From a virus (taxonomy: Duplodnaviria; Heunggongvirae; Uroviricota; Caudoviricetes), in the IMG/VR virus record IMGVR_UViG_3300038492_000581, positions 25,815 through 89,814 of that record: 64,000 bases of DNA. One strand, given 5' to 3'. Made by a program: the position numbers and the translations under genes. The notes under the pieces were generated by a model. It was not told the origin of the DNA. It was given only the letters and a program-made list of their open reading frames with translations, and did not search any database. This document shows positions 8,566-62,518 of this stretch, one piece after another. How positions within the stretch are numbered: position 1 is the first letter of the stretch; every line of letters starts with the position of its first letter.

Positions 8566-10575
8566 CTACGCTCTCCTTGAGTACATAATGTCAGTTTTTG
8601 GAACGTTGATAGTATAACTTTCGCCTTCAAGGCTGTCAAGGGGACTTTGAATACTTCCCCCATTACGGTTAGTTTTCGAATCCTCCTGCATATAGATTCG
8701 ATAAGCACGCTTGCCGCTGCCGTTGAAGATGTCTGCATTTTGCTGAGATAATCCAGACAAACCATCAGTGAAGATGATGACTGCATCAACATCGTCAGTT
8801 TGAATCTTCTCGTTACAGTATTCGATGACCTCATCGAAACAGGTTGAAGCACCGGCGAACACCTCGCCGGCTCTCATCTGAGCGATTTCGTTTTCATCAA
8901 GCTCTTTGATAGAGCCGGCGAAACTCATAACTCCGGAATCTCCATCGTCATTTCGCGAAAAAGCAATGTCGGCCTTTTCCTCAAACGTATCGCACATATA
9001 CATCATATGAGGAAAGAACTCGGTCATCGAAGGAGAAAGATCGAAGAACACGAGAACGCGACGCTTGCCTTCGGTACCCTCTTGATTTTGAAACAATGGG
9101 TATACAGGCGGACGCATACCCATAATTGCCATCATTGTACCTTCCTCAGTAAGAATCTGAGGATAAGGTCGGCTCATGATGTCATTTTCAAGCACCTCGG
9201 TAATTCGGCCAGCAACATCACGCATGATTTTTTCTGTGTAGATTTTCTCTGCGTAACGATCGAGACCAGGATCGGAAATATCTTCTGGCGTTTTAATGAA
9301 CTTGTCCCAAAATTCGGTCCTACAGTCAGAATACTTTTTCCAGCCCAAGCCACCCTGCAGTCTCTTGGGGACTAAAGACTTGCGTAGAGCCTCTTCGGCT
9401 TCGCGTGCTGATTCCGAGGCAATGTTTAGGCAATCTTCCATCATTCTGATGGTAGATCCATTAGGCATTTTTACTTCGTTCTTATTTTTGCCCTGACCTC
9501 CACCTTGTTGGTTCTTTTGTTCCTCACCCTCTCCTTCGCCACCACCGCCAGGCATTTTAAGAAGAGGAGCTTGACAATCGCTGTCTTCATCCATACCAAA
9601 AGGGTTCATTCCTTTAGTATTTTCATCGATCGGGACACCGAGTCTGGATAGGGCCATTCGATCGTCATAAGTGAGCTGAGAGCGTAGCCGGAAATATAGA
9701 TCATCAGGATTGACGTTTCGGATGTCAAACTTGAGCCTCTTGTAGACTTTCTTGGTTCGTTTCTTCTTAGTCTTCGGAGTTTCGTACTCGATTTCCTGCG
9801 GACCAGTGTCGTAAAGGCTTTCCCAAATCTCTGCGTAAGCGGGATTGACCCTGCGAAGCTTTCTGAGATCGGCATCCTCTAAAGAAGAGTTTGCCAAGGC
9901 CAGAACAGTGAACTTGCTTTCGTCAGGATATAGATATTGACAAAGTTTGTTCCATGCCTTTGAAACTTTGCCAGTAGTAGTGGCCGCCATGATTCGATTA
10001 GCACAAATGTCCATAACAAATCGTGCTAACCTCTTATCACCCAAATTTTCTCGACCACGACACAATGCCCGATGAAGAACCGCCCGTTGCATGATCATAC
10101 GAGCATAAGCCATCTTCCCCATAAGAATATAAGGATTGATGAGAATACGCTCTTTATTATTCTCGTCCAAACCCCACAGACAAATATCTACGTCGGTATT
10201 CGGTTCAGTGATTGTTCGAGCATGCAGATAACTAACACGCATCTTCATGTAAATCTTGCTGATACGAGCTTCCATCTTAGTTCGAGGCTTAACGGCGAAG
10301 ATATCGTACTTAGCGTTGCCTTTCAGCTCGCGACGCATTTCATCGAGATCGATGGGCAGAATCTTTTCTTCGGGTTTAACAAGCTTGCCATAACGCCATA
10401 GCTTGTCTCCGGATTGATCAACCTCAAACCATTTGATGAACCTGCCTTTGGATGTATCTTGTCCATACCTATTGCATCGAGTAGCAAGACTTCCATCTGC
10501 TGAAGTAGGAAGGGGTGCATCGGATCGTACAGTAATGGCGTGAGTTGAATAATCAGTTAGTTGAATGTCGCTCAT
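8566..10575 (-). CDS. von Willebrand factor A domain protein (CobT-like)
   Basis: 669 aa. Acidic/Gly-rich linker GGGGEGEGEEQ and a C-terminal vWA (RVLVFFDLSPSM ... IIFTDG). It sits immediately downstream of the MoxR-like ATPase. Confidence 0.55.
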   Translation of the reverse strand: MSDIQLTDYSTHAITVRSDAPLPTSADGSLATRCNRYGQDTSKGRFIKWFEVDQSGDKLWRYGKLVKPEEKILPIDLDEMRRELKGNAKYDIFAVKPRTKMEARISKIYMKMRVSYLHARTITEPNTDVDICLWGLDENNKERILINPYILMGKMAYARMIMQRAVLHRALCRGRENLGDKRLARFVMDICANRIMAATTTGKVSKAWNKLCQYLYPDESKFTVLALANSSLEDADLRKLRRVNPAYAEIWESLYDTGPQEIEYETPKTKKKRTKKVYKRLKFDIRNVNPDDLYFRLRSQLTYDDRMALSRLGVPIDENTKGMNPFGMDEDSDCQAPLLKMPGGGGEGEGEEQKNQQGGGQGKNKNEVKMPNGSTIRMMEDCLNIASESAREAEEALRKSLVPKRLQGGLGWKKYSDCRTEFWDKFIKTPEDISDPGLDRYAEKIYTEKIMRDVAGRITEVLENDIMSRPYPQILTEEGTMMAIMGMRPPVYPLFQNQEGTEGKRRVLVFFDLSPSMTEFFPHMMYMCDTFEEKADIAFSRNDDGDSGVMSFAGSIKELDENEIAQMRAGEVFAGASTCFDEVIEYCNEKIQTDDVDAVIIFTDGLSGLSQQNADIFNGSGKRAYRIYMQEDSKTNRNGGSIQSPLDSLEGESYTINVPKTDIMYSRRA

Positions 10576-12091: not shown

Positions 12092-12682
12092 TTAGCTCTC
12101 CTGATCGAAGTCGAAGTCGGTGACTTCGGTAATGGACAGATAAACGTCGGCCTCTTCTGTGGCACCCCGGAAGATGGCATCGATGGCACCTTCGCCACCT
12201 TTTTGAGTGGTTACCTCGATGATGACGAGGTCATTGTCGTTTGCATTGACAGTCACGACTTTTGAGAAAGCTAAGATCTTTTTGAACATGATCTTATACT
12301 TGATAGCTTCGGCTTGCTCGGGGTCACTGACGGTAGCTTCATCGTAGTAGAACTCTGTAAGCCCGCTAACTACTTGTCCTCCAGCAACTTTCTGTACTTT
12401 GTCGCTGATGGAAAAGATGGTTGGTGTTTCTCGGCCCTTGCAATGAACCAAGAATTGATGTCCAGATAAAGCCTGTGCCACTTCTTGATCCGCGACGTGG
12501 TCACAGCCACGTAAAATTGTGGCGTCCTTGGCGTTACTACGCTCAACACCGAACTCGCGTGCGATGGAATTCAGATTTCGCATACCGAAGCCAAAATGGG
12601 TGCCGAGAACGCGATAGGGCGTGCCGTTCGTGTCATCGAGCGAACGTGCCGTACGCACTCTGGGAGTGAGATCAGTGCTCAT
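12092..12682 (-). CDS. hypothetical protein
   Basis: 196 aa ORF. Confidence 0.4.
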   Translation of the reverse strand: MSTDLTPRVRTARSLDDTNGTPYRVLGTHFGFGMRNLNSIAREFGVERSNAKDATILRGCDHVADQEVAQALSGHQFLVHCKGRETPTIFSISDKVQKVAGGQVVSGLTEFYYDEATVSDPEQAEAIKYKIMFKKILAFSKVVTVNANDNDLVIIEVTTQKGGEGAIDAIFRGATEEADVYLSITEVTDFDFDQES

Positions 12683-12739
12683 GTGGATTCTCCGTTGTGT
12701 GACTCGTCCTAAGAGTATAGCACGAGTTGAGCGAGGCAG

Positions 12740-13105
12740 CTATTTTTTCTCGATTTTTCCTTCTTCGTAGCCGCTGCACTGTTTTACTTCTGGCACGTCT
12801 ATTTGCTTTCTTAAGATTGGATGACAGCAAATGCCGTGAATGAATGTCTTGACGGTGTGGGCTTTTGATTCAACCTCTTTGGTGCCATCATCGTCATTTT
12901 CGCCGTGACCAAACAATTCGTTGTGGGCGGCAAGAGCGTGATCTACTTCAGCCGGGCTATTTTCGTCGAAGAATGTGCCGTCTTCAACCACGGGATGAGC
13001 TGTACGAACATCAAAGATGCTCTCAGTTGCCAACTTAAGCCCACAAATTCCATGCTTACAAGTAAAGCATAGCGAATTCTCTGCGTTTAGTTCGTTTTTA
13101 CTCAT
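12740..13105 (-). CDS. hypothetical Cys/His-rich protein
   Basis: 121 aa with several CxxC/HxxxC pairs. Confidence 0.35.
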   Translation of the reverse strand: MSKNELNAENSLCFTCKHGICGLKLATESIFDVRTAHPVVEDGTFFDENSPAEVDHALAAHNELFGHGENDDDGTKEVESKAHTVKTFIHGICCHPILRKQIDVPEVKQCSGYEEGKIEKK

Positions 13106-14639: not shown

Positions 14640-14730
14640 TGAGTGGAGCCGGCGAGAATTGAACTCGCGTGCTGCTGTCCGTCGCCTCGATAGGATTTTA
14701 CACGCTTAGTTTCTTGCGAAACATTGGGGG
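14640..14730 (-). tRNA. possible tRNA-like element. Only the T-arm was recognised.
   Basis: Minus-strand GCGAGTTCAATTCTCGC T-arm followed by CGGCTCCA. I could not pair a 5' acceptor strand. Confidence 0.2.
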
Positions 14731-15012
14731 ACGTATTTGGTACGTCGCCTTCCACCACTCTGTTTTGTGAAAACAGAGAAAACGTTTTGCCGATGTATTA
14801 TAGTCGTCCCAATCTATCGGCATCAATTGGTTTGACTTGCTGCTACGCAGCCATCTTTGTAGTGCCAGTTAGGCTTGAGCATTCTGTTAAGGTCGGACGC
14901 ACAACAACCCTGCGTGACTATCTCAGTTCGTGAACCCAGTCGATACCTTTCGGCCCCGGGTACCATTAATAGTACACTTAATGGTGTCTAAAGTCAACTG
15001 ATTTTTGATGAT

Positions 15013-28291: not shown

Positions 28292-28369
28292 TGGGGACGG
28301 TGGGGCTCGAACCCACATTTACATCCTATTACCACTGTACGGTTTAGAAGACCGCCGGGATACGTCCCC
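28292..28369 (-). tRNA. atypical tRNA-like, anticodon loop CTTCTAA (Arg TCT). No recognisable D-arm.
   Basis: Perfect acceptor GGGGACG/CGTCCCC, T-arm GTGGGTTCGAGCCCCAC and anticodon arm GCGGT-CTTCTAA-ACCGT. Only 5 nt separate TA(8-9) from the anticodon stem. A 22-nt insert (ACAGTGGTAATAGGATGTAAAT) lies between the anticodon and T arms. Confidence 0.4.
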
Positions 28370-40249: not shown

Positions 40250-40311
40250 ATGAGTATTATACCCTGTGGCCGCCTTGCGGCCACAGAAAATTTTTATGCG
40301 GCGTGCCGCAG

Positions 40312-41919: not shown

Positions 41920-42103
41920 TGCCGGAGGCAGGATTCGAACCTGCAAGCCGCCAGTCAAACCCCTTTTGTCTTATGGGAAGTGGCCACTTCCCATAAGACT
42001 TCATGATTCTATTCTGTTGCTGCATTTCATGATTGCAGCACGGCACCCGCTTTACGAACGGGCGTGTTTACCAATTTCACCACTCCGAGCTTAATATCGT
42101 ATA
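41920..42103 (-). tRNA. tRNA-like fragments: a 3' T-arm/acceptor element (41920..41950) and a tRNA-Tyr-like 5' half (42040..42103), separated by two strong hairpins including a perfect 26-bp palindrome
   Basis: 3' part GCAGGTTCGAATCCTGC-CTCCGGC-A. 5' part GCTCGGAG-TG-GTG-AAATTGGTAAA-CAC-G-CCCGT-TCGTAAA-GCGGG (anticodon GTA, C33). Between them lie TTATGGGAAGTGGCCACTTCCCATAA and GCTGCAATCATGAAATGCAGC. The acceptor strands pair only 5 of 7. Confidence 0.25.
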
Positions 42104-43439: not shown

Positions 43440-43509
43440 TACCGGAGGGAGGAATCGAACCTCCGATAAAGACTTATGAAATCTTCATATCAACCTTAGA
43501 TGCTCCGGC
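43440..43509 (-). tRNA. tRNA with anticodon CAT (Met, or Ile2 if lysidinylated), short (70 nt) with a reduced D-arm
   Basis: Acceptor GCCGGAG/CTCCGGT, anticodon arm AAGAT-TTCATAA-GTCTT and T-arm GGAGGTTCGATTCCTCC. The 5' end overlaps the 3' end of the HNH ORF by about 25 nt. Confidence 0.4.
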
Positions 43510-53209: not shown

Positions 53210-53556
53210 GCAAGATAATAATAGAGGTTGACACTGACGACGTTGAATATTTGATAAACTGTTTGCCGGAAACAATTTCGGTTCGCGGCAATCTTATCGC
53301 GTCGGGTGATGATGTATACGATGAAGAAATGGAAAACCGGGTTCTTGACGAACTGGAATTCAACCCTTGGGCCTGGTGCATTGTTAAAGTGACCGCCAAG
53401 CTTGGGCCCTACGAAGGAGAGGCATTTCTCGGCGGTTGCTCGTACTCCTCAAAACAATCTTTCCTTGAGGATGGCGGCGGATACTTCTTAGCACTTAAAG
53501 AAGAGGCCCGAGAGGACTTGATGCGGCAACTTCGTGCGATTATGGAAAAGTCATGA
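53206..53556 (+). CDS. hypothetical acidic protein
   Basis: 116 aa. Confidence 0.45.
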   Translation: MSKIIIEVDTDDVEYLINCLPETISVRGNLIASGDDVYDEEMENRVLDELEFNPWAWCIVKVTAKLGPYEGEAFLGGCSYSSKQSFLEDGGGYFLALKEEAREDLMRQLRAIMEKS

Positions 53557-53809
53557 TTTATTTCATCGTTACAAAGATTCAATTGCATTTAAGTTTACAG
53601 CGGTTGTCGAGGAGAGTCGCATCATTCGAGTTTTGGCCCGAGTGTTGATTTCTGCCACGATTGTTGATCAATTGAACCGAGAAGGGTTTGACGTTCACGA
53701 TTTCAACATCGTGGGTCAAGATGCTGGGGCCGATTTGGAAGAAGTGGCCGTTTCCGAACTCTGCGGCCAAATCTTGGGAGACCTTGTTTTGAAGCATACG
53801 GAGAAATGA
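53534..53809 (+). CDS. hypothetical protein (GTG start)
   Basis: 91 aa track ORF overlapping the end of the upstream gene. Confidence 0.25.
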   Translation: MRLWKSHDLFHRYKDSIAFKFTAVVEESRIIRVLARVLISATIVDQLNREGFDVHDFNIVGQDAGADLEEVAVSELCGQILGDLVLKHTEK

Positions 53810-54464
53810 GGAAATGGTCTATTTCAAGCTTGATCGAGCGAACGGAAATCCCATTTATGTTCATGGCGACGACATTTCGGCCATCGAAATTGACAGCCAA
53901 GAGGACGCCGAATAGACGCCAGCAAAAGGAGGCCGTGAGACGCCCATAAATCGTCCGAGACGCCATTTCGTTGTCGTTGTGATTCGCGGCACCCTTGTTC
54001 TCTTTTCACTGTACAAAGGCATTTAAGCATGATTTCAGACAACCTATCGGGCCTTCTCGCCGAGAGACTTAGGAACCTAAAAGCGGACTTGAGATTGAAG
54101 GGATTTTCCGATAAAGACGCTCAAGAATTGTTGGTTGCTATGTCGAAAGGTTTGTTGGTGGAGGTTGTTCGCGACGGACGTAAGTAGCTGAGAATAAAGA
54201 TTCTCGGTTGGGCGAACGTGGGAAATTTTTTCTTTTTGGATACAGAGAATCATGATTCAAGATTTCCAAATTCAACAACTCTCTTCTAAAACAAGAGAAT
54301 TGTACTTAGCGTTATTGAGTAGGGGGTTTGGGGAGGGGGATGCGTTGATTGCTATGATTGTGGAGGTTGCGAAGGGGAATCGGGCGAAGTAGCGGCCCTC
54401 CCACCCTATCCCACAATTCCCCATTTTCTCCCACCACTCATAACCCTTTGCCTGTAGCCACCTT

Positions 54465-54791
54465 ATGATCCTCCCAATCGACATCATCCACCTCCTAATC
54501 ATCGCCATATTCGCCCTCTCCATGGGGCTTTTCGCTGGAAAACCTCGTCATGCTCATGGGTATTATTGTTTGTTTTGTTTTGATTGGGGTAGTAGAGTTT
54601 GCCGCAGAATCTGCGGTGTCTTGGTAAAGGGAATGAAAAATTCCCAAGGGTCATTAAACTCGGTACCACAAAACACCACCAAATACCGCATAATCTTCGG
54701 AAAACACGCTAAAATGACCTTTTTCATCATGCTTGGACTAACTTTGGTCTATTTCTTCTGGCAACCTCCCTACCAGGGAATTGCAGACTAA
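54465..54791 (+). CDS. possible small membrane protein
   Basis: 108 aa with a hydrophobic N terminus and a Cys-rich segment. Confidence 0.25.
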   Translation: MILPIDIIHLLIIAIFALSMGLFAGKPRHAHGYYCLFCFDWGSRVCRRICGVLVKGMKNSQGSLNSVPQNTTKYRIIFGKHAKMTFFIMLGLTLVYFFWQPPYQGIAD

Positions 54792-54896
54792 ATTCCAAAT
54801 AAGTCTCAAGGCCGGCTTGACTCTTGCCGATAAAGAGAGTAGACTGATACAGAACAGAGCAGATTAGCTCACAAATAACAAAATCTGGAGAAACAC

Positions 54897-55172
54897 ATGA
54901 ACCTCGTCATCAAGACCCGCACCACTGCTTCCATCGACATTCCCTTCGGTCCTCGCAATGCTGTTGCCGAAACCGAAACCGCCGAGGCACGTCCCGCCAT
55001 CGCTTTCGAAAACTCCGCCGCCGCCATCGTGCAGGCTGTCCTCAATGGCGACGACGATTTTATCGCTCAGGTTCGCGACAACCTTCCGGGCAGCATCGAC
55101 CCCGAGTCCATCAACGTTTCCGCTTCACGTGGCAACTTTGTGGTCGATTTCGAACAGACCTATGAGGGGTAA
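54897..55172 (+). CDS. hypothetical protein
   Basis: TGGAGAAACACATG RBS. 91 aa. Confidence 0.45.
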   Translation: MNLVIKTRTTASIDIPFGPRNAVAETETAEARPAIAFENSAAAIVQAVLNGDDDFIAQVRDNLPGSIDPESINVSASRGNFVVDFEQTYEG

Positions 55173-55446
55173 TCCATATTATTTGTGTACCGGGGATCTA
55201 AAAATATTGATTCTCGGTACACCAATAAAAAGGAATTAAGTGTAGTATACCTTCCCTCGCGACCGGCCGGAGTCCTACGCCGATTCTGCGATTGCCAAAA
55301 ATCGTAGAAGTATCCAGCCCGCCCTTTAAGAGCTTTTGGCCGGTCGCCCCTCCTCTCTTGCATTTTCATGCAGAGCCACACCAGACGGACAGTGGCTAAA
55401 CACCCAGCACATATTCACCCATCGGGTAAAATATCCCCGTTCCCAC

Positions 55447-55496
55447 ATCGACATTCTTGAGCAATGTCTTAACCTGAACATTCGGGGCAAGTTAAG
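55447..55496 (+). repeat. 50-nt exact direct repeat, copy 2
   Basis: Identical to 51347..51396. Lies immediately upstream of an AAGGGGAG RBS and an ATG at 55507. Confidence 0.9.
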
Positions 55497-55552
55497 GGGA
55501 GAAATCATGAAAAAGCTTGAATCCTATAAAGCGACATTGCAGAAAGGACGAT

Positions 55553-55705
55553 ATGTACTATGTGAGAGATACGATAACCGGGATGCTGTTTCCCGGGGCG
55601 GAGTTTACAACTGATTACGAGGCACAAAAATTCGTTGAGCAATTTGCGAATCTCGAAATCTTAACAGAAAGTCAGTGGACAGAAAGTGATGACGCACGAA
55701 GGTAG
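55553..55705 (+). CDS. hypothetical small acidic protein
   Basis: MYYVRDTITGMLFPGAEFTTDYEAQKFVEQFANLEIL. The alternative overlapping ORF 55507..55614 (MKKLESYKATLQ...) has the stronger RBS, so I cannot decide between them. Confidence 0.25.
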   Translation: MYYVRDTITGMLFPGAEFTTDYEAQKFVEQFANLEILTESQWTESDDARR

Positions 55706-55958
55706 TAAATCTTTCAAAAAAGGTTGCTTGACAAAACAGGGACTCTCAGTAGACCTCGTAAACATTCTAACTTTCGGTGGACGCCGAAACGGATTCACCT
55801 TTGCCGAATCTATCATCACCATTATGTCCGCGAGCATGCTTGGAGCGACATTTGTTTTTCGCAATGTATGAAAAACTAAAAGAATGCATTGAGTCGGGAA
55901 TCCATCTTGAGAGTTGCGACGACGATGGATATTGCAACAATTGTGGAGAACAGTGAAA

Positions 55959-56351
55959 ATGACTTTGATGGAAGCTTTGGCGGAATACTTCGCCGGAAAT
56001 CTTGATGGTATCATTACGCCTGATGTGGCTGCCGAAATGATTACGAAAACCGGTGGCACGGGTCAGGTTTTCGCGGTATCATTCTATAAGAAAGGAAAGA
56101 AGAATGGGGAAGGAAAGAATGACCTGCGGGAGATGAGGTGTCGTCTTGGCTCGACCGTTAAAAAGGGTCTGTCAGGTGGCCCGGCTGTATATAAACCCGA
56201 CGAACATGGGCTGATTTGGTCCTATCTGATGGCCGGAGACGAACGCCGCAACGATGATGACAAAAACCGTCGATCCATTTCGGTTTCGGGTATAACAAGA
56301 TTGGCTATCGGTGGACGCACGTATCACGTAACAGGAAATCGGCATCATTAA
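55959..56351 (+). CDS. hypothetical protein
   Basis: Internal start MTLMEALAEYF with a GGAGAA RBS. Confidence 0.4.
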   Translation: MTLMEALAEYFAGNLDGIITPDVAAEMITKTGGTGQVFAVSFYKKGKKNGEGKNDLREMRCRLGSTVKKGLSGGPAVYKPDEHGLIWSYLMAGDERRNDDDKNRRSISVSGITRLAIGGRTYHVTGNRHH

Positions 56352-56502
56352 TGTGGAAAGAGGTAATAGATCGAATAAGAGACAGGGCGTTGAAGGCTAA
56401 TCCAAGGGATGAAATTCGGATAGAGCTATTGTATAAAAAAGCTTTGTCTAAAGGGCCAGATGCCGAAAAAGCTATTGAATCCCTCAGAAAGATTGCGGAT
56501 CG

Positions 56503-57216
56503 ATGAGGCAATTAACAAAGCCCGGGAACAAAAAGACAGGCATAAATACGACTCGGCACTTTTCATTGCCAAGCGGGCCAACGTGTCCAGGTGAAACTGA
56601 AACTTGTGCAAGTCAATGTTATGTCAAAAAAATGGTAAAGCTGCGTCCGAACGTTGGCGATTCGTATCAATCAAACCTCGATTTTATCGAGGAATACGGC
56701 TTGGATAAGTTTGCAAAAGCCATCAATGGGGAGCTTGCATGCTTCCGTGGTGACTTTCGAATTCACGTCTCGGGAGATTTTTATTCCCCCGAATATGTGT
56801 ATGCGTGGGCCAATATTGTTTTGGCGAATCCCGAGATTCAGTTTTGGACGTACACACGTTCTTGGCTTGTTGGTAGGGACATGCTTGAGGCCCTTAAGAT
56901 ACTTGGATCTTGTGTCAACATGAATTTGTGGGCCAGTCTCGACCGCGACACGGGCGATAGTTCGCTAATCGTTGATTGGCCAAGAGCCTATCTTTCGCTT
57001 GAAGACAGTGACGTGCCGACGCACGCGGTCGAGATGGTCTTTCGAAACAATGGCTCTAAAAAGAGCAAAGATCATGTCAGAAAGCTTGCGGGCAACCAAG
57101 TCTGTCCGCTTGAAAGCGGAAGGAAGTACCCGCATGTTTCTTGTGCATCATGTCGGCTTTGTGTTGACAAAATTACGGAGACAAAAGCTAAAGTCGTCGC
57201 TTTGTGCAGTCGATAA
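56503..57216 (+). CDS. hypothetical Cys-rich protein
   Basis: 237 aa. CPGETETCASQC and CPLESG...CASCRLC clusters. Confidence 0.45.
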   Translation: MRQLTKPGNKKTGINTTRHFSLPSGPTCPGETETCASQCYVKKMVKLRPNVGDSYQSNLDFIEEYGLDKFAKAINGELACFRGDFRIHVSGDFYSPEYVYAWANIVLANPEIQFWTYTRSWLVGRDMLEALKILGSCVNMNLWASLDRDTGDSSLIVDWPRAYLSLEDSDVPTHAVEMVFRNNGSKKSKDHVRKLAGNQVCPLESGRKYPHVSCASCRLCVDKITETKAKVVALCSR

Positions 57217-57253
57217 GCTATAATAGAACAAAACAACGCGACGGAGTAAAGCC

Positions 57254-57430
57254 ATGACGACCACGATACCCGACAACGATAGGGTTTCTGCCCAAAAAGA
57301 ACTTTTGGCCGATGCCGACGCACACAGAGTGAGGGCCGACGTCGAACGTATCGACCTCGATATTGCCAAACGCGAGACCGAGATAGAGGATTTGAGGGCT
57401 AAGCGGGACCGAATTCTTGCCGAACGATAA
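57254..57430 (+). CDS. small coiled-coil protein (58 aa, not in the track)
   Basis: GGAGTAAAG RBS then MTTTIPDNDRVSAQKELLADADAHRV... Confidence 0.35.
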   Translation: MTTTIPDNDRVSAQKELLADADAHRVRADVERIDLDIAKRETEIEDLRAKRDRILAER

Positions 57431-57436
57431 TTTTCC

Positions 57437-57472
57437 GACCTCCGGCGTGATCTCGTGCTATACTTCTAATGT
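57437..57472 (+). promoter_or_regulatory. conserved promoter-like motif, copy 1 (GACCTCC-N15-TATACTTCTAATGT)
   Basis: Shares the GACCTCC and 14-nt TATACTTCTAATGT blocks with 57632..57670. Each copy precedes a small ORF. Confidence 0.4.
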
Positions 57473-57631
57473 GAGGGGCAAACGTCCCCCTCACAGAAAC
57501 ACGCAACACGAGGAAACGACATGAGCACAGTATGGAAGCCGACATACAAAGAAGCGATCAAAGCCGCTAAAGGTGATGTAAAGGCTATCCATATTGACCC
57601 GTGTGGCGGATTTATTATTCGCAAATAAAAA

Positions 57632-57670
57632 GACCTCCTCGGACGCAATTCTGTGTTATACTTCTAATGT
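57632..57670 (+). promoter_or_regulatory. conserved promoter-like motif, copy 2 (GACCTCC-N18-TATACTTCTAATGT)
   Basis: See copy 1. Followed by the RBS and ATG at 57701. Confidence 0.4.
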
Positions 57671-57700
57671 AAGACAAACACAACTGGTGAGAGAACAAAC

Positions 57701-57883
57701 ATGAGTCACAATGACGCACGCAAAGCCCTAACGCAAGCAGAAATCGACGCCCTTCGCACTTCGATCGCGTTCGCTAAGATGTTTGGCGATACTGACACTC
57801 TGTCACGCCTGCGTCAAGAGGTTATTTCGTATCAAGATCTCGGGCAAGCACACGACGAGATTATGGCCGCTTTTGCCGCATAG
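57701..57883 (+). CDS. hypothetical small protein
   Basis: 60 aa track ORF. Confidence 0.4.
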   Translation: MSHNDARKALTQAEIDALRTSIAFAKMFGDTDTLSRLRQEVISYQDLGQAHDEIMAAFAA

Positions 57884-57892
57884 GAGAAATCA

Positions 57893-58066
57893 TGAGCTAC
57901 AACCGCACAACTCTGATGGATCTCGAATTCGCCGATCTTAAGCAAGCTGTCGTTGCCGAGCGACCCGTCTTTCCCTACCCCGCTCCGGATGCGGCGGACA
58001 AGGCGATTGAGGCGGGGGAGATCTGGGCGGCTATGGTGGCCGACGAAAATCGTCGTCAAGGGTAAT
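57893..58066 (+). CDS. hypothetical small protein (57 aa, not in the track)
   Basis: GGAGAAATC RBS then MSYNRTTLMDLEFADLKQ... Confidence 0.3.
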
Positions 58067-58285
58067 TTGACTGGTCTTGATTCTGAGTGTGATCTTTATT
58101 CATCGCTCAAAGAACTTGAGGAAAATGTGGTGTGACGGGTGATTATACAGACCCCCCAGGGGTTTTTTCACTCTAAGAGAATACCCACCGGGTGGGATTT
58201 CTCCCATGGGGCCACACAACACAGCCCCATATTTTTGCTACTCAAGTCCCACAACCATTTGGGTGTTTCAAACATCTCTTCGAGC

Positions 58286-60653: not shown

Positions 60654-61678
60654 ATGAGCTTTTCGTTAAGGCCCAAGCCTGACAAAGCGTAAGAAGCGGA
60701 TGAATCTCGCACATAGCTTCGATCTGTGCCAGAGACTATCTGCTCGTACCAAGCCATAAGCTGGGCTTGGCTGACGACCGATGGTAATCCTGCTTCCTTC
60801 AAGAGTCTCTTCAGGTCGTCGCCATCCAATCCCAATGATGTTTCCCAAACATTGAACGCTTTGGTTTGTGACAGATTGTGAAGCTTGAGGACATCGAAAC
60901 AACGTCCCGGCCGCATGAGAGCCTCGTCGATATCTGTTGTGTTTTGATTTGTTGTAATAAGCATTTTGGAACTTTTACAAAAGATTCCATCACTGAAGCT
61001 GAGTAGATTGGAAACAAAAGGAGTTCTTCCGTCAAGCTCAGTGTCCATGTCATCAAAAATGACGAGGTCGTATTGTGTGCGAGCCAGTTTTGCCCATGTT
61101 TGCTGATTGGCGGCGATTTCGCTACCTTTGATGTATGCTACTCGGGAGTAGCGTCCCGATTTAAGCATCAGTCTTATAAATGACGTTTTGCCGACGCCAG
61201 GATCGCCCAGTAAAATCATAGTCGTGCTTGCTGAAGCCCCAAAAGCATCGAGCAGCTTGACCGAATCAATGTCAGCATAGAGTTCCGGAATGACTGTGCC
61301 CAACTCGTCATTGGCAACCACAATGAGTGAAGTCTCAATGCTGCCCTTGGCGTGAAAAAAGAAGTCGACCGTGACATCCCTTTTGAAAAACTTTTCAAAC
61401 TTCTTTACCACTGTCTCAAGTAATTGTAAAGAATTCGCAAAGAAAATGACGCTTCCACACCCCGAAACAAATATGGCAGCATTATCGCCTTTGTATATCG
61501 AGAAAACATCTGTCACGCACTTTTCGGTGCAGGTGCCTGCCCGGGCTTTGAAGGCTTCAAGTTTTCCGCCAGGCACATAGAAAGATCCCACCGAATACGC
61601 ATACTCGTCATCGAGTTTAGCAACCAGAGAAAGATCGATCTGACCGGTGTAACCTATATTAAAATTTACTTGTGACAT
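60650..61678 (-). CDS. AAA family ATPase
   Basis: Walker A ILLGDPGVGKTSF, Walker B LVIFDDMD and second region of homology ALMRPGRCFDV. Confidence 0.65.
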   Translation of the reverse strand: MSQVNFNIGYTGQIDLSLVAKLDDEYAYSVGSFYVPGGKLEAFKARAGTCTEKCVTDVFSIYKGDNAAIFVSGCGSVIFFANSLQLLETVVKKFEKFFKRDVTVDFFFHAKGSIETSLIVVANDELGTVIPELYADIDSVKLLDAFGASASTTMILLGDPGVGKTSFIRLMLKSGRYSRVAYIKGSEIAANQQTWAKLARTQYDLVIFDDMDTELDGRTPFVSNLLSFSDGIFCKSSKMLITTNQNTTDIDEALMRPGRCFDVLKLHNLSQTKAFNVWETSLGLDGDDLKRLLKEAGLPSVVSQAQLMAWYEQIVSGTDRSYVRDSSASYALSGLGLNEKLI

Positions 61679-62126
61679 TTGTTAGCTCGTATACCGCCAT
61701 GGAAAGTTCTTCACCAGTGGATGGGCCTTTTGGGGCCACCAACAAATCAAAAGCATACCAGTCTCGCGGAGCCCGCACCATACGCAAGGCTCGTTTATAT
61801 CCGTCGCCAAATTTTCTCCAAGGAAACCGTTTTTCGACATCGCCGTCTGGCCGCCGAATCTCAGTTGCCTCAAGCAGCACGTTTTTGGGCAATCGAAACG
61901 GACCGTAGAATTCTTGGGCGGCTTCTCTTATTTTCTGTTTGATACAAAGCTTTGCGAAGCATTCCCAAGAAGATCTATTTTCATCGAAGTATTTGGCTGC
62001 GATCATGACGGCCTCTCTACCAACTTGACAGAGGTCGTCGAATTCCAGTACATTCGATTCAGTATCGTCCGCTATTGTTCGAATATATCTTTCGAATTTC
62101 TTAACGTCGTCGGAAGACAATTCCAT
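61659..62126 (-). CDS. sigma-70 family factor-like protein (region 2)
   Basis: DLCQVGREAVMIAAKYFDENRSSWECFAKLCIKQKIREAAQ parallels the sigma region 2 pattern DLIQEGNIGLMKAVEKFDP.RG.KFSTYA.WWIRQAI. Confidence 0.5.
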   Translation of the reverse strand: MELSSDDVKKFERYIRTIADDTESNVLEFDDLCQVGREAVMIAAKYFDENRSSWECFAKLCIKQKIREAAQEFYGPFRLPKNVLLEATEIRRPDGDVEKRFPWRKFGDGYKRALRMVRAPRDWYAFDLLVAPKGPSTGEELSMAVYELTNVTSKF

Positions 62127-62409
62127 CTTCAGTTTCCCTCAAAAGATACCAGCCTTTTGTATCTGAGTTCAAGATGAAATCAGTCATTTGAGATTGAGAC
62201 ATTCCTGATGTTTCGACAAAGCACGTGTTGTTGTCGATAAATTCCACTGGCGGTATTTTACCTTCATTGGAATAAAATATTCCATTTGACATACCCTCTG
62301 TGAAGAATGCCACCGTTCCAGTGAGTAGTAATCCAACCAAAACGTATCGCCAGTTGAACATTGTGCGGTTTTTGCTGGTCATTGCCGATATCTCCTCGCG
62401 TGATTGCAT
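62101..62409 (-). CDS. small membrane protein
   Basis: 102 aa with an N-terminal TM helix. Confidence 0.4.
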   Translation of the reverse strand: MQSREEISAMTSKNRTMFNWRYVLVGLLLTGTVAFFTEGMSNGIFYSNEGKIPPVEFIDNNTCFVETSGMSQSQMTDFILNSDTKGWYLLRETEDGIVFRRR

Positions 62410-62518
62410 GCGAGTATATCATACGCCCGTTAGGGCGTCAATTAAATTTCGTCTCAATTAATATGTAAAGGGTGTACTATTGGAAGGGGCGATCGTGTCC
62501 CATCAAAAGGAGACATCT

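Follow-up and report, generated by a model that had tools for sequence, protein, structure and literature searches.

The window analysed here, a stretch of 64,000 nucleotides, comes from a large uncultured phage. Its minus strand carries at least 24 tRNA genes and a tmRNA gene, and the window encodes NAMPT, two RNA ligases, and one DNA ligase. No GenBank phage matches the window at the DNA level, one of its large proteins has no match of any kind among cultured phage genomes, and no relatives of its GP88 protein or its AAA ATPase were found in IMG/VR. The nearest GP88 in a set of 5.8 billion proteins is 54% identical and is encoded on contigs L029 and L030, which have no DNA similarity to the window. 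The locus described here shows 100% identity in the other assemblies of this phage, which therefore provide no informative variation.

The locus lies near the 3' end of a plus-strand module of mostly small genes (49832-58065) that includes the genes for DUF932, DUF6011, and GP88 (56503-57216). Terminator-like T-run hairpins (CCCCCCAGGGGTTTTTT at 58152-58168 and ATGGGGCC...GCCCCATATTTTT at 58206-58236) close this module on the plus strand, and a convergent minus-strand operon, running from 62382 down to 58168, encodes the AAA ATPase and a 155-aa sigma-like protein. GP88 is followed by four small ORFs on the plus strand: a 58-aa gene (57254-57430), preceded by a predicted promoter of a sigma-28-like class, P1 (57189-57224); a 35-codon ORF (57521-57628), preceded by the Shine-Dalgarno sequence GAGGA (57510-57514); a 60-aa gene (57701-57883); and a 57-aa gene (57892-58065). 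Gene calls around the locus were taken from the public annotation of identical contigs, which includes the 58-, 60-, and 57-aa genes. The 35-codon ORF is called by no public gene caller and is absent from the protein collection; its codon score is 0.19 per codon, compared with 0.23 +/- 0.11 for in-frame 35-codon pieces of confident genes, and exceeds that of every off-frame piece tested, so that its coding signal points to a probable gene. In a collection of 15 billion sequences, the products of the three called genes (58, 60, and 57 aa) are each singletons, and L029 and L030 contain no homologue of any of the four small ORFs. The phage and these two contigs do have in common DUF932, two other small proteins, GP88, and the AAA ATPase; the four ORFs therefore occupy a variable orphan-gene region between conserved genes.

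Two copies of a single motif flank the 35-codon ORF. The 14-mer TATACTTCTAATGT occurs exactly twice, at 57459-57472 and 57657-57670, on the plus strand and 198 nt apart; both copies have the same orientation and lie in intergenic spacers, directly 5' of a ribosome-binding site and a small gene. Upstream of each is a GACCTCC block (57437-57443 and 57632-57638, plus strand, 195 nt apart), and the distance from this block to the TATACT hexamer is 15 nt in the first copy and 3 nt longer, 18 nt, in the second. These elements and positions agree with a preliminary description of the sequence, which was also correct about the ribosome-binding site and small ORF after each copy (GAGGA-N6-ATG with 35 codons, and GGTGAGAG-N7-ATG with 60 codons) and about a strong hairpin after the first (GTGAGGGGCAAACGTCCCCCTCAC, 57471-57494, -15.6 kcal/mol). 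An ungapped alignment of the copies at the 198-nt offset extends over 37 nt with 76% identity (score 16), and a gapped alignment with a 3-nt indel, read from the sequence, covers about 40 nt, in which 7 of 7, then 9 of 15, then 14 of 14 bases are the same. The similarity is limited to this core of about 40 nt. A tandem duplication of the whole 198-nt unit was rejected, since similarity between the flanks does not exceed that of shuffled sequence.

In 13 of 200 dinucleotide shuffles of the window, some exact 14-mer recurred at a distance of at most 300 nt; on its own the 14-mer repeat is thus marginal. The longer match is rare, with a score of 16 for a 37-nt ungapped match reached anywhere in the window by only 2 of 100 shuffles; the shuffles leave aside the shared orientation of the copies and their intergenic, gene-proximal placement. 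Because a rare longer match is combined with common orientation and with placement in spacers before genes, the pair is regarded as real rather than as a chance match. Within the window there is no third copy of TATACTTCTAATGT at up to 3 mismatches, nor is there one at up to 4 mismatches in a further 15.5 kb of the same phage (positions 1-8126 of L032 on the right-hand side and 13090-20594 of L035 on the left-hand side; 79.5 kb with the window included). Over the sequence available, the recurrent, phage-specific promoter class proposed in the preliminary description is therefore not supported, the absence of further copies being part of what it had named as refuting. The 14-mer is absent from the closest relative (L029 and L030), where a lone near-match in L030, with 2 mismatches and on the minus strand, was taken for chance. 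An exact-pattern scan of IMG/VR with TGNTATACTTCTAATGT returned 27 contigs, each with one match and none with two, and these were treated as unrelated. The upstream block is not enriched either, as GACCTCC occurs 5 times on both strands of the window against roughly 8 expected (an estimate for a random 7-mer in 128 kb). A de novo word search of the non-coding gaps of the window found only A-rich low-complexity words and no other repeated promoter motif. The other TGnTATACT sites of the window have different bases 3' of the hexamer; the additional identity of the two copies (TCTAATGT downstream, CCTC/GACCTCC upstream) therefore marks them as sister copies rather than as instances of a genome-wide consensus.

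The motif had been described as promoter-like but without resemblance to the sigma-70 consensus. The first part stands, as TGnTATACT is present in the intergenic spacers before consecutive small genes, and the second does not: in both copies, TATACT matches TATAAT at 5 of 6 positions, including the critical A (position 2) and T (position 6), and a TG lies at -15/-14, one base 5' of the hexamer. In well-studied bacteria, TGn combined with a good -10 hexamer allows initiation without -35 contact. The two copies are accordingly labelled here as predicted promoters P2 and P3, with the extended -10 elements TGCTATACT (TGcTATACT, 57456-57464) and TGTTATACT (TGtTATACT, 57654-57662) on the plus strand. 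Their likeness to sigma-70 promoters was overlooked because the -35 region is poor, and a simple two-hexamer sigma-70 scan lists neither of them because they lack a -35 box. Initiation is predicted at the G seven bases past the hexamer, at 57471 for P2 and 57669 for P3, which would make each 14-mer a -10 hexamer, a discriminator, and the +1 and +2 positions. Relative to G57471, the first GACCTCC block spans -34 to -28; it overlaps a weak -35-like CCGACC (3/6, 18-nt spacer, plus strand, read from the sequence) that P2 may retain. P3 has no -35 match at 16-18 nt spacing, presumably since a 3-nt insertion shifted the shared GACCTCC block away. The sequence from -35 to -24 is CGACCTCCGGCG in P2 and CCTCCTCGGACG in P3, and an AT-rich upstream stretch is clear at P3 only. 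The distance from the end of the hexamer to the ATG is 56 nt for P2 (ATG at 57521) and 38 nt for P3 (ATG at 57701), both start codons have a Shine-Dalgarno sequence, and the P3 leader is unstructured in folding. Both copies also contain an ATG with an immediate stop codon (ATGTGA at 57469 and ATGTAA at 57667); these pairs are probably untranslated, because the predicted start lies at or after their G.

The same extended -10 element recurs elsewhere in the window. TGNTATAMT, that is TGnTATA(A/C)T, is found 10 times against 2.98 expected, an approximately 3-fold enrichment, and a single shuffle out of 100 contained as many as 10. The locally transcribed strand carries eight of these sites, and six of the 10 (12714, 31102, 36801, 57456, 57654, and 62413) are 31-80 nt 5' of a start codon or a tRNA gene. 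Upstream of the operon with the AAA ATPase and the 155-aa sigma-like protein, the site at 62413-62441 (minus strand) forms a sigma-70 promoter close to consensus, TTGACG-17-TGATATACT (TGaTATACT). The promoter-like site at 12714-12726, also on the minus strand, reads CTCGTGCTATACT, is identical over 13 nt to the first copy (57452-57464), and lies 31 nt 5' of the ATG of a 196-aa gene (12092-12682). In the relative L029, TGcTATAAT is present before the GP88 gene and TATACT before several small genes. E. coli galP1 and the Gram-positive TRTG "-16 region" promoters are known examples of extended -10 (TGn) promoters in the sigma-70 family. P2 and P3 have in common with galP1 and its class the TG, the TATAAT-like hexamer, the weak or absent -35, and a purine 7 nt downstream, and the TGTGnTATACT of P3 fits TRTG; the 8 further shared downstream bases and the upstream CCTC block are not class-defining, and the assignment is a prediction of function against a consensus that is assumed rather than taken from an identified host. 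P2 and P3 are most likely read by the host primary sigma (sigma-70 or sigma-A).

The GC-rich hairpin of P2, GTGAGGGG-caaacgtc-CCCCTCAC (57471-57494, plus strand), begins at the predicted start site and is followed by no U-tract. It was rejected as a canonical intrinsic terminator because there is no T-run on either strand. In folding, the P2 leader 3' of the stem is A/C-rich and unstructured, with the ribosome-binding site free, and no Rfam family matches at the locus. Some transcripts, including the E. coli ompA leader and those with Bacillus and phage 5' stabilisers, are stabilised by a 5'-terminal stem-loop. The arrangement at P2 is the same, with a stable hairpin within 0-2 bases of the 5' end and a free ribosome-binding site, although here the 5' end is a predicted one. 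The P2 hairpin is thus most likely a 5'-terminal stem-loop that protects the mRNA, and it may also slow read-through from upstream. P2 is the single site in the window at which a hairpin follows the -10 in this way; four sites in L029 (5717, 6908, 7818, and 11623) have a -10-like hexamer, then 2-7 nt, a GC hairpin, and an A-rich leader. A loose scan for this layout is noisy, and no statistic is given for it. The ribosome-binding site of the 35-codon ORF, CACGAGG (57507-57513), could pair in read-through RNA with UCUCGUG (57451-57457; z = -2.6). This anti-Shine-Dalgarno-like pairing is probably due to chance, as nothing comparable is present at P3, at P1, or at the 12714 site.

Both sigma-like proteins noted in the preliminary description are encoded by the phage. 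The 155-aa protein (61659-62126, minus strand) matches Pfam Sigma70_r2 marginally, with 24.4 bits against a cut-off of 24. The ORF at 1-335 on the minus strand comprises the N-terminal 111 codons of a 163-aa, ECF-like two-domain protein of the sigma-70 family, whose complete gene is found at 12755-13246 of L035. This protein passes NCBIfam TIGR02937 (sigma70-ECF) with 48.8 bits against a cut-off of 42.9, in a match that covers region 2 through region 4; Pfam detects region 2 and, weakly, region 4, and no separate region 3 was detected. Its second-best NCBIfam match is FliA/WhiG, far under threshold. The two sigma-like proteins have no detectable similarity to each other, and no relative of the 163-aa protein besides itself was found in a large protein set. 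In sigma-70, region 3 contacts the TG of extended -10 promoters. The conserved TG of P2 and P3 therefore argues for the host primary sigma rather than for a two-domain sigma that appears to lack region 3. The operon of the 155-aa protein is itself placed behind TGnTATACT with TTGACG, a promoter that must be read before that protein exists. The suggestion that the phage proteins are the cognate factors of this motif is left without support.

A second promoter-like motif in the same module is a better candidate for an alternative sigma than the P2/P3 motif, judged by its sequence. P1 reads TAAAGTCG-N12-GTCGATAAG-c-TATAAT (57189-57224), its CGATAA including the stop codon of GP88; a second site of this type, TAAAGTTT-N12-GACGATAAG-TATAAT, is located at 52430-52464, and L029 has TAAAGTCT-N12-GCCGATAAG-TATGGT at 10512-10546. 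The consensus for FliA/sigma-28/SigD is TAAAGTTT-N11-GCCGATAA (PMC2859248; PMC12784957). Against it, the site at 52430-52457 (TAAAGTTT-N12-GACGATAA) has 1 mismatch and the site at 57189-57216 (TAAAGTCG-N12-GTCGATAA) has 3, and P1-type sites differ in a spacer that is 1 nt longer, in a GC extended -10 that is not kept, and in a TATAAT that follows directly. The P2/P3 motif, in contrast, lacks the FliA/sigma-28 elements (TAAAG(TTT) as -35 and (GC)CGATAA as -10, 14-15 nt apart), which are found at P1 (57189-57217) and at 52430-52458. TAAAGT-N15-17-CGATAA occurs twice in the window against 0.01 expected, and the P1-type sites could be read by host FliA or by a phage sigma. A scan of IMG/VR with TAAAGT-N16-CGATAAGTAT gave 80 stretches, many of them repeats of unrelated coding sequence, and 18 distinct sites among the results form a composite promoter, TAAAGTTT..cTTGACAA.G.CGATAAGTAT.gTATAAT. 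On large contigs, as many as eight of these composite promoters are arrayed within 11-13 kb (L075, L095); a GP88 homologue lies nearby on several of the contigs, one carries tRNA and tmRNA genes, and none matches a cultured phage.

The arrangement of P2 and P3 resembles the promoter-early stem-loop (PeSL) cassettes of T4-like phages, in which a sigma-70-like early promoter is combined with a GGGG...CCCC stem-loop that, in one of five described layouts, lies just 3' of the -10 (PMC2839356; PMC4122927). PeSLs are found between the orphan genes of hyperplastic regions, where recombination of flanking copies deletes or moves the enclosed gene; they are present in dozens of copies, with about 100 bp conserved and a near-consensus -35 (PMC2839356; PMC4122927). 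Their promoters are strong, have a -35 as well as a -10 box, and follow an AT-rich stretch, and the stem-loop serves as terminator or attenuator. At the present locus, predicted sigma-70-like promoters are likewise located in spacers among small orphan genes of a variable region, P2 has a GGGG...CCCC stem-loop directly 3' of the -10, and a copy of the repeat stands on either side of an orphan gene. The differences are that here there are two copies in 79.5 kb, similar over about 40 nt; that P2 matches the -35 box at 3 of 6 positions and P3 not at all; and that P3 has no stem-loop, while the hairpin of P2 has no U-tract. Two large proteins of the window matched no T4-like phage among cultured genomes. 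Neither mini-circles nor insertion/deletion variants were seen at the locus, and among the assemblies of the same phage there is no variant genome that lacks the 35-codon gene. The pair therefore resembles PeSLs without membership being established, and by analogy recombination between the two copies would delete or move the 35-codon gene.

The reading preferred here, with a probability of roughly 0.7, is that P2 and P3 are sister host-type extended -10 promoters that serve small orphan genes, one of them with a 5' hairpin, in a PeSL-like arrangement. P2 would drive the 35-codon orphan gene, with a transcript that opens with the stable GGGG/CCCC hairpin, and P3 would drive the 60-aa and 57-aa genes as far as the terminators near 58150-58240. 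Counting P1 (57189-57224), the variable orphan-gene region would then hold a tight series of three promoters, with one for each small gene. The identity of P2 and P3 beyond the sigma contacts, in the 8 nt after the hexamer, appears best explained by common descent, either through a local duplication or through promoter-to-promoter recombination that may have inserted, or may be able to delete, the 35-codon gene. The CCTC shared at -32 to -29 and the identical 8-nt discriminator nevertheless exceed what a generic sigma-70 promoter requires, and some dedicated factor may take part; a pair of copies is too few to separate selection from recent duplication.

An extension of this reading relates the pair to the arrays of the distant relatives, in which up to 8 nearly identical promoters of about 55 nt combine TTGACA/TGnTATAAT with interleaved TAAAGTTT/GCCGATAA-like boxes. 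The pair might then be a degenerate member of a system of promoter cassettes by which orphan genes are shuffled, within a large lineage of uncultured phages that carry tRNA and tmRNA genes and lie outside the T4-like phages; this extension is considered unlikely. If it were true, P2 and P3 would keep the sigma-70 half of the cassette and P1 the sigma-28-like half, the small phage sigmas (or host FliA) would switch expression among the same orphan genes, and genes such as the 35-codon ORF would be gained or lost through recombination between cassettes.

A different explanation treats the 40-nt copies as the footprint of recombination or duplication, that is, as the junctions or the excision substrate of a cassette made of the hairpin and the 35-codon ORF, so that one or both may not be promoters. 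The direct repeats do flank exactly one small ORF, the similarity stops at their borders, the region varies between relatives, a separate exact 50-nt direct repeat occurs 4.1 kb apart within the same module, and PeSL mini-circles provide a precedent (PMC2839356). However, both copies have an intact TGnTATACT at the right distance from the ribosome-binding site, identity peaks over this functional core instead of being uniform, and all independent assemblies are identical at the locus, with no sign of ongoing excision. A recombination origin is in any case compatible with promoter function, and as an account that replaces host-type promoters it is improbable.

The T4 middle promoters suggest a third explanation. 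These promoters depend on sigma appropriation by MotA and AsiA, with a MotA box centred at -30. As at P2 and P3, they have a good, often extended -10, and the -35 is replaced by a block around -30; a phage activator or appropriation factor might accordingly act on CCTC.G.CG or GACCTCC in place of the -35 while host sigma occupies the extended -10. The good -10, the missing -35, and the shared upstream block fit this arrangement, as does the third site (12714-12745), where CCTCG is found 5' of CTCGTGCTATACT. The MotA box (a/t)(a/t)(a/t)TGCTT(t/c)A at -30 is, in contrast, absent from P2 and P3, with no TGCTT box of this type present, and the position of the upstream block is not fixed, shifting by 3 nt between P2 and P3 and in the third site. 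Given also that GACCTCC is not enriched and that the extended -10 already makes a -35 dispensable, this explanation is very improbable.

T4-late-type TATAAATA boxes were considered separately and are not enriched in the window (1 against 1.5 expected). A phage-specific promoter for a phage sigma-like protein, with GACCTCC/CCTC as its -35 and TATACTTCTAATGT as its extended -10 and discriminator, would account for the presence of two sigma-like genes and for the CCTC and the 8 identical post-hexamer bases that host sigma contacts leave unexplained, but its chances are slimmer still: its core is a textbook TGn and TATAAT-like element where phage-sigma classes (T4 late/gp55; SPO1 gp28 and gp33-34) have a distinct consensus, such a class should recur before many genes and does not in the window, L032, or L035, one sigma-like protein is itself encoded in an operon preceded by the same element, the 163-aa protein fits a two-domain sigma70-ECF in which no separate region 3 that could contact the TG was detected, two-domain sigmas tolerate poorly a 3-nt difference in spacing of the kind seen for GACCTCC, and P1-type sites fit an alternative sigma much better.

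Read as host-type sister promoters, P2 and P3 add two predicted promoters to the annotation of an uncultured large phage. A false lead is removed, namely a promoter class unlike sigma-70 and linked to the phage sigmas; the motif appears to belong to a promoter kind that is already known, and in itself it matters little. The window does acquire a usable promoter grammar, in which TGnTATA(A/C)T stands before genes, tRNA genes, and the operon of one sigma-like protein. The TAAAGT-N16-CGATAAG motif, which marks where an alternative sigma (phage-encoded or host FliA) may act, is the more promising lead. The orphan gene between its sister promoters, together with the 5' hairpin, would provide a testable case of PeSL-like shuffling outside the T4-like phages.

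A promoter-like motif of the form TAAAGT-N16-CGATAAG, followed by TATAAT, TATGGT or a similar hexamer, is found on the plus strand of the window at 52430-52464. A second site of this type (P1, 57189-57224, +) lies upstream of the two extended -10 sister promoters P2 (57456-57464) and P3 (57654-57662), and a third is present in L029, a contig of the nearest relative, at 10512-10546 (+). The class fits the FliA/sigma-28 consensus TAAAGTTT-N11-GCCGATAA with a spacer 1 nt longer, and the 52430 site departs from that consensus by a single mismatch. The motif occurs twice in the window, compared with 0.01 occurrences expected, and is common to this phage and that relative, whose GP88 protein is 54% identical. 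For recognition by an alternative sigma factor, either phage-encoded or supplied by the host, the TAAAGT-N16-CGATAAG class is a better candidate than P2 and P3.

Other promoter-like sites in the window are accompanied by palindromes. On the minus strand, 3' of a tRNA-Leu gene, CTGTGGCCGCAAGGCGGCCACAG lies immediately upstream of GGTATAAT (40255-40286). The promoter of the operon encoding the 155-aa sigma-like protein (62395-62441, -) carries the palindrome ACGCCCtaacGGGCGT in its spacer and a second palindrome that overlaps the -10 element and the start. Such layouts have also been described among PeSLs, the promoter/stem-loop cassettes of T4-like phages.

At P2, the segment UCUCGUG (57451-57457), just 5' of the -10 element, pairs in upstream read-through RNA with CACGAGG (57507-57513; z = -2.6), the ribosome-binding site of a 35-codon ORF located between the two motif copies. 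Transcripts initiated at P2 lack the UCUCGUG arm. This pairing is probably due to chance, because no equivalent pairing is found at P3, at P1, or at the promoter-like site near 12714. In both motif copies, the ATG within TCTAATGT runs straight into a stop codon (ATGTGA, 57469-57474; ATGTAA, 57667-57672), and the sole base that differs between these hexamers retains the stop either way.

The small-gene module that contains P2 and P3 also carries an exact 50-nt direct repeat (51347-51396 and 55447-55496, both +), whose copies are 4.1 kb apart; one falls within the DUF6011 gene, the second in a spacer. A public assembly of this phage, L028, begins at 55467, inside the repeat, which is a possible substrate for recombination. 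Apart from the 14-mer of P2 and P3, the only exact 14-mer repeated within 300 nt is GATGAATCTTTACG (50566-50579 and 50680-50693, +), both copies of which lie inside a DUF932 gene. The ends of two JGI contigs of the same phage fall in 57125-57305: Ga0169445_00003, which has one mismatch to the window across a 6.9-kb overlap, ends at 57125, and Ga0169445_00057 departs from the window sequence after 57288. These breaks beside the P2/P3 locus could represent population variants or artefacts.

The divergent minus- and plus-strand modules are separated by a gap of about 1.1 kb (48750-49831) that lacks a convincing ORF, includes several GC-rich palindromes and gives no hit to Rfam at gathering score. 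Within the gap, a sigma-28-like -10 element, GCCGATAAG, starts at 49382 on the minus strand, downstream of a -35-like TACAGT at 49405. The gap might have a regulatory function, belong to an origin region or encode a non-coding RNA. Elsewhere on the minus strand, Rfam identifies a phage-encoded tmRNA gene (14641-14957; 63.3 bits, gathering score 47) that was not reported by ARAGORN. ARAGORN identifies 24 tRNA genes (15915-45272, -), and Rfam contributes further matches at 28292-28369, 43440-43509 and 41920-42089. The third of these extends over 170 nt and is possibly an interrupted tRNA.

Sigma-28-like boxes are interleaved with sigma-70 boxes in a composite promoter of about 55 nt (TAAAGTTT..cTTGACAA.G.CGATA..TAT.gTATAAT), which occurs as near-identical copies at IMG/VR loci including L053, L074, L075, L077, L087, L095, L107, L112 and L114. 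The copies form arrays of up to eight (e.g., L095 748-11621, L075 336-10108). They lie on large contigs of uncultured phages, with no cultured-phage match found; a GP88 homologue is near in several, and one contig bears tRNA and tmRNA genes. Directly 3' of the composite promoter, at least seven contigs (L053, L074, L075, L077, L087, L095 and L112, e.g., at about 385-440 in L112) have a conserved stretch of roughly 50 nt in common, AAATCAACTGGCGAGGTCACAAGTGACGGTGTGATCCAAAGCCGTAACCGA. Rfam scans of L053, L074, L075, L095 and L112 returned no match for this element, a possible small RNA or conserved leader.
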